From the NCBI GenBank assembly GCA_964016885.1, contig OZ024741.1, positions 337,404,001-337,468,000 on the forward strand: a stretch of 64,000 bases of DNA. The letters run 5' to 3'. This document shows positions 21,084-57,305 of the stretch, piece by piece. Below the pieces are notes generated by a model. The model worked only from the letters and a program-made list of their open reading frames with translations, was not told where the DNA came from and made no database searches. The position numbers and the translations under genes were made by a program. Numbering within the stretch: position 1 is the first letter of the stretch; each line of letters opens with the position of its first letter. Origin of the DNA: Eledone cirrhosa (lineage: Eukaryota).

Positions 21084-21280
21084 TATGAAAAAATTCAGGA
21101 TCCCGACGGCTGAGCTCCGGCCATTTGAACAGCTAGATCGAAACTGTTCGGATTTAGCTGTTGAAACAGCCGGAGCTCAGTCGTAAGGATCCTGAATTAT
21201 TTCATATTACCCACTCTACTACCCCAAGTATCGAGTACTCTGGTGAGCAATGGCCTAACTGGTTTTTACTGCCTCCATTC
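21084..21280 (+). mobile_element. Half-HHR fold-back repeat family, copy 1
   Basis: Hairpin centred near 21143; GAAA-CAGC cggagctca GTCG-TA; tail shared with copies at 22957, 46567, 49084 and 56812. Confidence 0.65.
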
Positions 21281-21608
21281 TTTATTTTTTGTTTTGTTAT
21301 TCCTTTATCTTAACTCCCTCACCCCTTACTTTTCACCACCAACTAATTCTCGTATTGCTTTATATCCTTCATGATGACTTCAAACAATGTGACAGTGGAA
21401 GCTGAGCAGACGGATCGATGCACATAGATGCACGGGATGATTTGACCGGGATGGTGAGAATAATTGTTAATTTATAAAGAGACCCCACCGTTATAATGAA
21501 CCAATGAGCAAGTATGGCTGAATACCACTATGTTAGAAAGCGTGCTAACTTATAAGAAGAAATTCAGAAAATATTCAGACAGTCTCAGACGCGATCCTGC
21601 ATATTAAA

Positions 21609-21700
21609 ACATATCTGAGGAACTTCCGATTCCAGAGTCAGGTTCGATCATTAATAGATTATTCCTCGAGCTGATTGACAGTGAAACATATGTAATATGT
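21609..21700 (+). ncRNA. Type I hammerhead ribozyme, intact core
   Basis: ACATAT-CTGAGGA-ACT..AGT-GAAA-CATATG-TA-ATATGT; perfect 6-bp stem I, palindromic stem III. Confidence 0.85.
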
Positions 21701-21859
21701 AATAAATATGTATATGATGCATCACTGATTCTTTGTTCCTTTATATTGATACTCTGCTCACCAAGGGCATCGAGCGCTCACCCGGCTTACCACCTACGGA
21801 CGCAATTAACTTGCACCTTAACACACACACACACACATATATATATATATATATATATA

Positions 21860-22925
21860 TCATCATCATCATCATCAACGTTTAACGTCCGTGTTCCACG
21901 CTTGCATGGGTTTGGACGGGGGTTTTCCCACTTGAGGCAAGAGTGATTGTTTTGCTCGCATAGGACTGTCTGGCAGGTTTTCTACAGTTGGATGCCCTTC
22001 CTAACACCAACCACATTTACAGTGTAGGTCTGGGAGGTTTTTACCGTGTTGCCTACACGGCCACATTACAGCGTGGACTGTATGTTTTTTTGTCGTGACA
22101 CCTACACGATCTCATTTGTTTCGGCCTGGATGGCGCGGCACCAACATAACTTTACATAGAACGGGGTGGTGTGGATGGGGTGGGGGTGGTGGTGGGACGG
22201 GGTGTATTTTGTTAGAGATACCTACTGGCTGTAGTAGGTTTTACTATGTATTTAGGTAAGGCGGGTCTTCTCTGTTACTGAGTACCGCCAAAGGTCTCAG
22301 TCCAGTGACATTGTCTTGGAGAGGTGTAAGTGTGTGAGGTCGGAGTTTATCAGCTCATCCCAGGTTTTTCTAGGTCTGCCTATTCCGTGGCTACCGTCTA
22401 ACTTTATTGCTTTGCACTTTGTTATACAGCTATCGACTTTCATGCGCATCACGTGTCCATACCAACGTAGCCTTCTCTCGAGTAAACAACATCTGATCCC
22501 TCTTATTTCTATTTTTTTTTTCCTTAGTTCGTTTATGCTTTGCCGTTCACGTATATTACTGTTACACATCCAGCGGAGCATGCAAGCTTCGTTCCTCTCT
22601 AGTCTGCGTATATCCTCTGCACACAATGCCCAGGTCTCACTGCCATGCAACATTGCTGTTCGTATGCAGGCATCGTACAACCTGCCTTTCATTTTTAGGG
22701 AGAACCCTTTAGCAGCTAATAGTGGTATAGGCTCACTGAACTTTTTCCAACCAGTTCTGACTCTAGCTACTGTACTTTCAGAGCACCCTCCCCCACTGCT
22801 GATTTTATCGCCCAGGTAACGGAAGCTGTCCACTATTTCTATAGAACCCTCTGCGCAATTGAAAGAGCTAGTATTTTGTGGGCACTTGCTGCTACTTATT
22901 GCACCAGAGCACCGGCCACATGTAA
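21860..22925 (-). mobile_element. 5'-truncated RTE LINE with extended 3' UTR
   Basis: ORF 22833-22297 ([26 protein letters not shown]) plus tail. Confidence 0.9.
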
Positions 22926-22956
22926 ATTATATATATATATATATATATATATATAA

Positions 22957-23146
22957 CGAAGGAAATGTGGTAAGGAACTAGGTTGACCATAACGCACCAA
23001 AGTACTCAATACTTAGTGTAGTAGAGTGGGTAATAGGAATGAGTAGGACCCCGACAGCTGAGCTCAAGCCGTTTCGACGGCTAATTCTGGACTGAGCTCA
23101 AGCCGAAACGGCTTGAGCTCAGTCGTCGGGGTCCTACTCGTTCCTA
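22957..23146 (-). mobile_element. Half-HHR fold-back repeat family, copy 2
   Basis: GAAA-CGGCT tgagctc AGCTG-TC-GGGG on both strands as an inverted duplication. Confidence 0.7.
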
Positions 23147-23778
23147 TATATATATATATATATATATATATATATATATATATATATAATTCATATTGCT
23201 GACTTTACTGAATTTGTTCCTAAATTCTTATAAATTCTTATACATTTTCCAAATATTTCTAATTCCTAAATATAACACCACATCTTTTGAACAGCTTCAC
23301 CTGAAATATCTGCTTGTATTTATAAATTCATTCATCATCATTATCATTATCATCGTCATCTTCCCTATTATCTTCATCATCCTTCTCCTCATCATCATCA
23401 TCATCACCATCATCATTTAACATCCTTTAAGCAAGGGCTGGACCAGTCGTCAGCAGACTGGTTTGTTAGTCAAATATGAGGTACTGACTCAATGGAACCT
23501 GCATCTCTCTTTCATAAATTCCTGTACTCTACTGAATACTCAGATGGGTCGGTGGCCTGCAAACTTGCTTATATACAATCTTGTGCATTTTATTATTAAA
23601 CCAGCATTAAGGAGGTTATCATGTCCTTCACACAACTGAAGAATCCTCCCAACCCTTTTTTGGCAGGTTTTTTTACTGTTGGATACCCTTCCTCTCACTA
23701 ACCACTATGCAAAAGGTACTGTGTGCACTTAACATGTAAATAACCAACACTTAGTTACAATTTCATAAACTCATTATA

Positions 23779-24041
23779 TGAAGGTCAGCTGAAAAGTTCA
23801 TAGGCTGACCAAACTACTCTCATGGAATGACCAAATGAAGTTTATTTTTCAACATAGTCCCTGGAAAGAATCAATGCAGTTATTAATAAGAAGAGTTGCA
23901 ATTAATCCATGCAAGATTTCACAACCTTAGCATCACTCTTTCATAGGCTGACCAAGATACTCTCATGGAATGTGATCAAGAATTTACAGCTCTAGCATGA
24001 ATCTTTAATAGTCAGCCTATATACTTTTCAGCCGACCCTTA
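23779..24041. mobile_element. Tc1/mariner-derived MITE
   Basis: TA-flanked TIRs TGAAGGTCAGCTGAAAAGTTCATAGGCTGAC / GTCAGCCTATATACTTTTCAGCCGACCCTTA. Confidence 0.75.
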
Positions 24042-25165
24042 TAAAATATACTGAAAATTCAATAATTTTTTTTTGTATCATATTTCTATGCAATAAGATA
24101 TTTTATAATAGGTATGGCTTTCAAACCAGTTAGCTGTCTAAAATTTGAAACCAAATCTTAACAGAAATGTTCAAATCAGTTAATTCGACCATTATTTATG
24201 GAACAAAAAGAAAGCATTTATTCTTTAATTAATACTTCAGAAGGAAGCTCTAAAATGCTTGTGAAATGTTTCACGCTGACTAGTTTTTAAAGAAATCCCA
24301 ACTAGTTTAATGCATTCTTCAAAATAAAACTACATTTGTATGTTGCAGACTAGCCTAGCCATCAATTAAACAACTGAAATTAATATCTAATCTCTAATGA
24401 GCTTTTCCAAAGAATTTAATTAATGATCGAAACATTTTTCATTTCTTCTTCATTCTTTCATTAAATTCATATTTATTTATTTATTCATAAAATTCACATA
24501 GAACTATTGAAACATCCATTTTTCTCCCTTTCTCACACACATCCCAATACAACCCCTATCCCTCCTCTCTCACTATCTCTCTCTCTCTATATATATATAG
24601 CTATCTATTTATCTCTCCCTCTATCTATCTATTTATCTATCTATCTATTTATTTATTTATCTATGTATCTATCTATCTATTTATCTATCTATCTGTCTAT
24701 CTATCACTCTATCTTTTGTTTTGTTTTGTTTCATTTAACTTAACATATTGTTAAAACGAAATCAATCAATAAGGTTGGCTCTCCTCATTCAGCATTATTT
24801 TACTCTGCCTTGTGGCCTCATATACAAACAATAGCTTTCATAAATGACCATCTTTTATATTAAGGCTGTTGTAAGTTTCATGTAAAACGTTGTCATGCTG
24901 GAAAGGGGATGGTAAGAGTGTGTGTGTGGAGAGGGAGAGAATGAGGGGGAGAGAGAGGTGGTGGGGGTAGTAACAATTTTGATATTTTGTTTTTCTTTAA
25001 ATCCCTGAAATATATATATATATATATATATATAATGTATATATATATATATATATAATATATATATGATGATGATGATGATGATGATATATATATATAT
25101 ATATATATATATATAAAGAATGAATAATAACAGGTAAACATCATAAAAAGGTAATTTATTCCGTG

Positions 25166-55889: not shown

Positions 55890-56171
55890 TATATATATAT
55901 ATATATATATATATATATATATATATATATATATATATATATATATATATATATATATATATATATATATATATATATATATATACATATATATATATAT
56001 CAATGTATATATGTTTACATCTATATACATATATACATCTATGTATATATGTTTATATTTAGAATGTTGAGAAGTGACACACGAGTTGATATATATTATG
56101 AAAATAAGAAAGCAGTAGAAAATGGTAAAAGAATTTTATCATAGAAAAACAGAAACATTTTTTAAAAACAA

Positions 56172-56209
56172 AGTATAGTACCGGTTTCAGTCGATAAAAA
56201 TTTCGACTT
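56172..56209 (-). ncRNA. 3' part of a hammerhead ribozyme
   Basis: AGTCGA..TCGACT stem II, GAAA-CCGG-TA; CUGANGA replaced by (TA)n. Confidence 0.5.
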
Positions 56210-56676
56210 ATATATATATATAAATTCACATTTTTGTTACTCTCTCTCTCTCTCTCTCTCTCTCTCTCTCTCTCTCTCTCTCTCTCTCTCACTCTCTCTC
56301 TCTCTCTCTCTTTCTCTCTCGCTCTCTCTCTCTCTCTCTCTCTATCTATCTATCTCTCTCTCTCTCACTCTCTCTCTCTCTCTCTCTCTTCCTTTGTGAT
56401 GTGGTGGTAGTAGCAGCCAAAATAGTAGAAGTTGGGGGTTGTCTCATATATGTGTATATATATATGTATATATATATATATATATATATATATATATATA
56501 TATATATATATATATATATATATATATATATATATATAATGTATTCATGAGTGTATGTATATATATATGTATATAGTTATGTTTACACTTTTGGGGCAAA
56601 ATGCAGGGTGATGTAAAGTTGGAGTAATAATTTCTCAATGGTATCTATACTTACTGATGTAATCATAAGAACTTCT

Positions 56677-56716
56677 GCCTCTGAAGAGCCCTTCTGGGCG
56701 AAACACATGTAAGAGC
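56677..56716 (+). ncRNA. Minimal type I hammerhead ribozyme
   Basis: CT-CTGAAGA-GCCC ttct GGGC-GAAA-CACATG-TA-AG; stem I weak. Confidence 0.7.
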
Positions 56717-56811
56717 TATATAAAGAATTGTTTTAATGGCTTGTAACTCCTTTATTCATTCATTCATTTGCTTATATATATAAACATATAATGTATATTG
56801 TACAAAATTAA

Positions 56812-56975
56812 TCCCTGGTGGCTGAGCTCTTGCCATTTTGACATCGAATCCCTGTCAAAATGGTAAGAGCTCAGCTGTCCAGTACTAATCTTTTACAATA
56901 CCTACACTCTGCTTCAACAAGTATCGAGTACTTAGCTGAATAATGGTTATACTAGTCTAAACTGATAACTTCCAA
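56812..56975 (+). mobile_element. Half-HHR fold-back repeat family, diverged copy (another at 57218-57277)
   Basis: Hairpin CTGAGCTCTTGCCATTTTGACA/TGTCAAAATGGTAAGAGCTCAG followed by the shared AAGTATCGAGTACT tail. Confidence 0.6.
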
Positions 56976-57085
56976 TATGTGTATATATATATAGGTTCTC
57001 AAGTGGTGTCGAGGGAGTAACCATAGTTTAAAAAAGGAACTCAATACATTGGTAGAGTATAAGCATCTTTATTATGAATAGAAAT

Positions 57086-57137
57086 GACTTCTACAAGACT
57101 AGAACTGTTTCATTCATATAAAATCATCAGGGAAGTC
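57086..57137 (-). ncRNA. Type I hammerhead ribozyme with a decayed inverted partner at 57140-57186
   Basis: GACTTC c-CTGATGA-..-GAAA-CAG ttctagtc TTG-TA-GAAGTC. Confidence 0.62.
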
Positions 57138-57305
57138 TTTCCTCGTGATTTCATGCTAATGAAACAGTTCTACTCCTAGAAAAGTCATATATATAAATAT
57201 ATATATATATATGTATATAGGAAAAGAGTCAGGCCCCTGACAGCTGAACTCCAGCCCTTTCGACAGCTAGATCCGAATACACACACACACACACATATAT
57301 ATATA

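Follow-up and report, generated by a model that had tools for sequence, protein, structure and literature searches.

Truncated insertions of a Hydra-clade Penelope-like element in Eledone cirrhosa probably end at an RNA start inside hammerhead stem II

Introduction

Canonical insertions of endonuclease-bearing (EN+) Penelope-like elements (PLEs) have been described as partial tandem pseudo-long terminal repeats (pLTRs) accompanied by an adjacent inverted, 5'-truncated copy and a tail of 30–40 bp at one end (PMC8557442, PMC3846280, PMC2377424). In Drosophila virilis, Penelope has an internal promoter within its pLTR (PMC2377424). The protein of an Anolis PLE cuts and extends both strands in vitro, initiates at two internal sites of the RNA and has been predicted to act as a dimer (PMC11167929), and circular RNAs have been proposed for PLE hammerheads (PMC4209133). 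As far as the available text of this literature goes, the element type, the tail, the inverted truncated copies, the targeting of (TA)n, the PLE hammerheads and the U3-A8 core are all known already; the origin of the inverted ends and hammerhead cutting in vivo are both treated as open (PMC8557442, PMC3846280, PMC11167929). Here we analyse a stretch of 64,000 nucleotides of the Eledone cirrhosa genome (assembly GCA_964016885.1, contig OZ024741.1, positions 337,404,001 to 337,468,000; hereafter the window) in which short pieces of a PLE carry the 3' half of a hammerhead ribozyme and stop within its stem II.

We conclude that these stubs probably arise from two primings on one RNA, both copies running off a capped start or, in a minority, a predicted ribozyme cut. 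The copy number of the family lets the genome show both of the questions above, as junctions piled on the predicted cut and as arms sharing an RNA end. Our literature search, made at title and abstract level and excluding subscription papers and preprint supplements, returned no mapping of PLE inversion junctions to a transcription start or a ribozyme cut.

Materials and methods

Element coordinates are counted from the predicted hammerhead cleavage site, the G that directly follows GUC being +1 and GAAA starting at -22. By arm we mean a single contiguous piece of the element. The assembly surveyed comprises 3.0 Gb. A blind sample of 140 stretches of 10 kb, taken at even steps on contigs 1–10 only (1.4 Mb in total), contained 101 arms. 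After two edge-cut arms were dropped, 99 remained, as 35 pairs and 29 single arms, a density of about 46 insertions per Mb. Genome-wide junction counts were controlled with the reversed pattern. Complete hammerhead motifs were collected from fetched loci, and this set of 96 is enriched for young copies. Repeat finding within the window was dominated by microsatellites.

Results

A sequence-only reading of the window had listed six loci (21084, 22957, 46567, 49084, 56812 and 57218) with the 3' half of a hammerhead. All six carry it on their respective stretches, with GAAA, stem III and UC followed by the 3' strand of stem I. A 5' core is absent from every one of them, and they divide as described into head-to-head pairs (21084, 22957, 49084 and the decayed 56812) and single arms (46567 and 57218). 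The list was right as far as it went but overlooked a seventh arm, at 49396-49452 (+). Some of the 30 best genomic matches to the locus at 49084 extend further upstream, across a long stem II as far as CCCC and a TTGA-N-AA core, and one of these is joined to a fragment of reverse transcriptase (RT) and endonuclease. When that protein served as query against the genome, 150 of 73,808 candidate matches were scored; many were identical, and they included 784-codon open frames with a tandem spacing of 3,531 bp. This frame holds YRDD, of the RT, together with a GIY-YIG-like motif at its C-terminus; in one unit DKT (in place of DKG), a CxCx5C linker, CxxC and CxH were all present, and RWR stands at residue 100, where the Hydra clade has RWK. 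Both 3' ends of the element's arms run into (TA)n, as in Hydra-clade targeting, and a comparison by eye found that the RT blocks resemble the part of the Hydra alignment of PMC8557442 available to us. Pfam gave no family match for the protein pieces or the whole frame, so the EN+ PLE assignment rests on motifs and on by-eye likeness to the published alignment. A homologue search returned 629 relatives, the best 120 of which showed 38–54% identity and carried uninformative names.

On these motifs we assign the window loci as 5'-truncated stub insertions of a Hydra-clade PLE; the linked RT and GIY-YIG frame upholds the PLE origin suggested earlier. The label Neptune/Nematis was rejected since the CX2-5CxxC linker found no match in the element protein. 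A non-LTR retrozyme was rejected too, the stubs lying head to head without a 5' core and the tandem units being 3.5 kb long and coding. The array L141-L142 (G000 C1:437197001-437217000) holds more than four units of 3,531 bp with intact frames, three of which, when compared, were 0–1 base apart, and from such near-identical intact units the family looks recently active. Separately, a run of a second organism also contained a low-depth fold-back contig of the element, matched with L141:6766-6795.

The fetched loci contained 96 complete type I hammerhead motifs attached to the intact open frame, with the core U4 G5 A6 N7 A9, GAAA and UH, in support of the hammerhead identity proposed for the stubs. 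Core positions 4, 5, 6 and 9 were retained in 95–96 of the 96, and position 7 was free (G 61, A 25, C 7, T 3). The 3-8 pair was U-A in 90, C-G in one and mismatched in five, which is why no CUGANGA had been seen by the sequence-only reading. A further copy with a C-G pair lies at locus L008, and the canonical CUGAGGA core occurs in two copies of subfamily B, to which the loci at 21084 and 57218 belong. Three copies (L137, L139 and L140) have a C3-A8 mismatch core; such copies are possible intermediates between the C-G and U-A forms. The hammerhead was the minimum-energy fold for A1, the youngest sequence, and close to the minimum for A4. In the window, Rfam listed no hammerhead among 150 of 223 matches, only microsatellite-driven microRNA matches.

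Complete copies, for which the sequence-only reading had proposed a search, were thus found elsewhere, in long copies, and the family is therefore not ribozyme-less. That reading had offered a second possibility, a ribozyme-less derivative dependent in trans on the other half. Most copies do hold the 3' half only, and since an RNA from -40 formally amounts to a substrate strand, a downstream pLTR could conceivably cleave it in trans. The 96 complete motifs on the intact frame nevertheless refute a ribozyme-less derivative, and the stubs are not a separate family; we give this alternative next to no credence.

Native stem II is an imperfect hairpin of 52–59 nt, whose loop and 5' strand are missing from the window copies. 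The perfect hairpin with a short loop reported for the window does exist, but it is the junction of two arms and not native stem II. In the blind sample, 59 arms had 5' ends between -31 and -47, the interval from -48 to -350 held none, and three ended beyond it (-358, -1312 and -1425); 3' ends piled at +20 and +100. The breakpoint hot spot within stem II is thus real, the ends being clustered and not random. Genome-wide, 7,791 junctions in which both arms reach -35 had their centres at about -35 to -44, against 0 in the control. Arms reaching -39 numbered 20,186; among the first 100 listed, 20 ended at -39, 29 at -40, 21 at -41 to -44 and one at -48, and 27–29 crossed the entire 15 nt upstream. 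We conclude that the main wall of 5' ends lies at -39/-40 and a smaller one at -43 to -45, which replaces a single start at -44. The claim that the family is always broken or folded back here holds for the window loci and fails for the family, since 4,391 exact copies, counted with one subfamily string, extend past -46. Contigs of one public run, which may come from the assembly's own sample, change roughly tenfold in depth at the wall and have loose ends there; such contigs cannot show transcription starts. A splice acceptor at TTTAG was rejected, AG being kept in many arms with no common upstream exon.

According to the sequence-only reading, a complementary DNA (cDNA) copy of native stem II snaps back and primes itself. 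This process predicts the native loop at the centre of the product, and the arms stop before reaching the loop. An exact product of the distal helix, searched for in the youngest subfamily only, had 0 matches genome-wide, and that of the proximal helix, with a pattern degenerate over four subfamilies, had one, compared with 7,791 junctions. The fetched loci held none, their two pattern matches being a natural copy and an ordinary junction. Beyond that single loop-retaining junction, the position of the centres within stem II is what speaks for snap-back, and we regard it as scarcely credible.

The composition of the pairs points to two primings instead. In 34 of the 35 blind pairs, one arm was tailed and the other tail-less. 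The tail-less arm reached at least 8 nt further 5' in 17 of the 35 and the tailed arm in one; in the other 17 the two agreed within 8 nt. Among 19 selected long insertions, 17 were complete pairs, head to head, each having a +100 end and a short end, one had its partner end outside the locus and one was single. In these 17 long pairs the +20 arm reached further in eight (e.g. 5,465 vs 180 nt) and the +100 arm in six, and three agreed within 16 nt. A tail-less arm that holds sequence without a counterpart in its partner, together with a tail that could not be copied from a tail-less arm, argues that both ends were primed on RNA. Two further comparisons were less informative. Among 50 pairs, three private variants were shared in mirror image and 78 occurred in one arm only, too rare a class to decide between the models. 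Partner arms differed by 6.0 positions in 45 nt, compared with 10.0 for random arms, which shows only that partners share a subfamily.

A single cDNA could also be imagined to be primed at +100, run off the RNA end, form a hairpin with a tiny loop, copy back to +20 and join the target. Such copying back would explain the near-perfect palindromes and the matched ends, both the 17 of 35 pairs within 8 nt and the coupling of +1 with +1 described below. It cannot yield the 17 of 35 blind pairs or 8 of 17 long pairs whose +20 arm holds extra sequence, nor single +20 arms such as those at 49396 and 57218; at most it accounts for part of the symmetric class, and as a general explanation we think it improbable.

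A second pile of ends lies at the cleavage site. Genome-wide, 289 junctions were centred near +1 (control 1), and among the first 50 listed both arms ended at +1/+2 in 38 and otherwise in 12, where an even spread predicts about 2%. The 38 comprised 12 blunt junctions, 9 with one A or T between the arms, 10 with other fillers and 7 with one arm at +2. With a partner reaching -39, there were 102 junctions whose other arm ended at +2 to -12, and 17–20 of the 100 listed ended at +1/+2, near an even spread over 15 positions. By hand arithmetic, independent arms should give about 700–1,400 such mixed junctions, the inputs being about 220 +1/+1 junctions and 545–2,180 junctions whose two arms each reach at least -39; the latter range was scaled from 14 of 50 listed of the 7,791, its lower figure allowing for subfamily mismatch. 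The shortfall of mixed junctions speaks for one RNA as the template of both arms, and for +1 as the end of an RNA and not a stall. Stalling of the RT at the base of stem III was rejected as the cause of the pile, which is absent when the partner reaches -39. From the motif and the pile at +1, self-cleavage after GUC is predicted.

The surroundings of the main wall resemble a promoter. TTTAGT, at -43 to -38 on the 3' strand of stem II, is invariant in all 10 complete copies aligned from subfamilies A and B, next to a variable loop; we take it to be initiator-like, with its A at -40. A TATA-like box on the 5' strand of stem II lies 29 nt upstream of the wall in A1 and 31 nt in A4 and A5, TTTAGT following the box at 29–34 nt. 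In A3, which has a longer stem, the box lies 29 nt from A(-45), and many A3 arms end at -45, in a set selected for reaching that far. In single arms joined to (TA)n, the extra base before -40 was G in 20 and C in 5. Extra G at -40 versus -39 stood at 20:3 where 29:20 was expected (p=0.004), and extra C at 5:2 (p=0.40). As with LINE-1, copying of the cap by reverse transcription would leave an extra G, and the one before -40 is cap-like, possibly the trace of a copied cap.

A second PLE-like family in the window served as a control. It has a hammerhead with a short stem II and a CUGAUGA core and is built head to head with one tail; one copy lies at 593-650 (+) and a head-to-head pair at 57040-57190, and a protein fragment at 777-1082 has 41% identity to the Hydra endonuclease region. 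Of its 52 arms, 17 lack a recognisable core and fall outside the count. The other 35 include 31 that keep 0–7 nt upstream of C3, none that keeps 8–71 nt and four that pass. Stem II does not contain this wall, which sits about 30 nt behind TATAAATA in three of the four copies that pass; in the control family the wall thus follows promoter spacing and not stem II.

These findings bear on two further explanations. The wall at -40 might be a block to the RT, two primings being otherwise kept; the obstacle could be structure in the RNA, a protein bound to it, or cutting by a nuclease next to the loop of stem II. A block suits a wall several nucleotides wide in the distal helix adjoining the apical loop, and would cover subfamily B, which has no TATA-like box. 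Yet about a quarter of young arms cross the wall and then extend for hundreds of bases, 12 of 12 long arms run through this structure where it recurs in an upstream copy, the wall of the short-stem-II family stands at TATA spacing but outside stem II, and a block leaves the extra G at -40 aside; we therefore hold it to be unlikely. Self-priming on an antisense template, a published hypothesis for rotifer PLEs with palindromic junctions (PMC3846280, as presented in the text available), would also make head-to-head palindromes. The piles fall on sense landmarks, however, namely the ribozyme cut and the TATA/initiator-like site with its extra G, which makes this origin very improbable.

The individual loci of the window are as follows. 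The first pair combines a subfamily B short arm at 21083..21145 (-), with its 5' end at -40 and its 3' end at about +22, head to head with a subfamily B tailed arm at 21146..21277 (+), running from -39 to about +93. The subfamily A5 pair consists of a tailed arm at 22953..23093 (-), from -40 to +100 and finishing in (TA)n, and a short arm at 23104..23147 (+), from -23 to +20. Between them, a filler of 10 nt (23094..23103) repeats element sequence and is likely a local template jump. A single tailed arm at 46566..46705 (-) has its 5' end at -44/-45 and (TA)n on either side. In the subfamily A3 pair, a tailed arm at 49082..49226 (-) runs from -45 to +100, and a short arm at 49224..49270 (+) from -40 to +20 with an internal deletion spanning the cleavage site. 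The seventh locus is a single short arm at 49396..49452 (+), from -36 to +20. The decayed pair has approximate limits at 56800..56852 (-) for the short arm and 56853..56975 (+) for the tailed arm, the latter with about 72% identity to the references; decay has gone too far for exact 5' ends. Finally, a subfamily B single short arm lies at 57217..57277 (-), from -38 to +22.

Other repeats lie in the same window. Tandem units of about 325 bp at 18560-19730 each hold a complete compact hammerhead-like motif, with the CUGAGGA core at 18878 (-), 19203 (-) and 19532 (+), folded head to head about 19365; this stretch resembles a non-LTR retrozyme carrying an inversion of PLE type. A third family is represented at 56670-56760 (+) by one complete minimal hammerhead-like motif (CUGAAGA, 4-bp stem II, GAAAC), of which the fetched loci held no other copy. 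Non-LTR RT fragments with YADD lie at about 6500-6840 (-), 42750-43040 (-) and 51400-51690 (-); they are presumably RTE-like and CR1/L2-like.

Discussion

The reading that we favour, two primings on one RNA, would start with a cut in (TA)n. Each side of the cut would prime a reverse transcript on one and the same RNA molecule, and the two transcripts would be joined head to head at the point where both run off the 5' end of that RNA. That end would most likely be a capped transcription start inside stem II, set by a promoter formed by the TATA-like box of the 5' strand and the initiator-like TTTAGT of the 3' strand; the breaks would fall inside stem II because the element RNA likely starts there. 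With its promoter in this place, the messenger RNA (mRNA) would begin with half a ribozyme and so keep its cap. The protein would bind near the 5' end and start at +20 and +100, giving arms of 60 nt and 140 nt, and hammerhead cleavage of a minority of RNAs would give arms ending at +1. Arms of hundreds to thousands of bases would come from initiation at a downstream pLTR on a longer or circular RNA.

Several observations weigh against this account. The wall is 6 nt wide and not one base, and subfamily B has the same wall without a TATA-like box. The ratio of G to C at -40 (20:5) does not differ from that at the control positions (5:2; Fisher p=0.63). Arm ends within blind pairs were weakly correlated (rho 0.30, p=0.08). 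The minimum-energy fold was not the hammerhead in three other copies, and the alignment fold paired the core region with stem III, being non-hammerhead except for stem I. The genome-wide end tallies were counted by hand on the first 50–100 listed places, mostly on contig 1, and start, cap and cleavage are all deduced from genomic DNA. Among selected arms that reach the upstream pLTR, 12 of 12 continued past -170 and none stopped at -40 or +1. A linear mRNA from -40 should leave unit-length ends there, and as none occurs among the 12, the long copies need another template, which could be a multi-unit read-through RNA or a circle.

Extending the favoured reading to these long copies, we tentatively suggest that three RNA forms are recorded, and that in each case a single protein dimer on a single RNA did the copying from the two sides of the cut. 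A capped mRNA with the stem II promoter and half a ribozyme, escaping its own cut, might have left the -40 stubs; a ribozyme-cut linear RNA might have left the +1 stubs; and a ligated circular monomer without a 5' end might have given the longer-than-unit arms and the near-identical tandem arrays. The element offers exact testable positions (-40, +1, +20 and +100) in a young family with intact frames.

Comparison with known systems

The closest known elements are those of the Hydra clade of C-terminal EN+ PLEs (Craig et al. 2021, PMC8557442), including Hydra-1_Obim. In the text available from that source, they share with our element DKT, CxCx5C, CxxC, CxH, GIY-YIG, (TA)n targets and a hammerhead in the 3' region. 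Our element differs in its 3.5-kb unit, most Hydra elements being shorter than 3 kb, and in RWR versus RWK (PMC8557442). Its stem II of 52–59 nt and its U3-A8 pair also set it apart from Hydra-1_Obim, reported with a canonical core, a short stem II and 'no pLTR' (PMC8557442), and a search of the text examined from the supplement of PMC8557442 did not find the element's ribozyme strings.

Like canonical EN+ PLE insertions, those of the element have head-to-head arms, a tail on one arm and tandem units; the tail measures 80 nt, compared with 30–40 bp. The available portions of PMC8557442, PMC3846280 and PMC2377424 map no junctions to RNA 5' ends and show no shared arm end. A preprint (10.64898/2026.07.22.740005) describes, in the part accessible, tandem retrozymes, and the window stubs are not of that kind. 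The likeness to Cercyon of Schistosoma mansoni (Cervera and de la Pena 2014, PMC4209133, in the passages seen) lies in the U3-A8 covariation, the G10.1-C11.1 pair and the opposite-strand motif pairs. Cercyon motifs are minimal and lack helix III, whereas in our element stem III is complete and stem II is very long and apparently holds the promoter.

Two primings on one RNA fit the in vitro behaviour of the Anolis element (PMC11167929). Like Anolis Poseidon PAc (Frangieh et al. 2024, PMC11167929), our element has two fixed 3' ends downstream of the hammerhead, at the start of the open frame, and an AT-rich target. For Poseidon PAc, the sections of that paper available report that none of the RNA reads ended at the cleavage site and that the main substrate was RNA left uncleaved. 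Our element, by contrast, has a minority class of genomic junctions exactly on the cleavage site.

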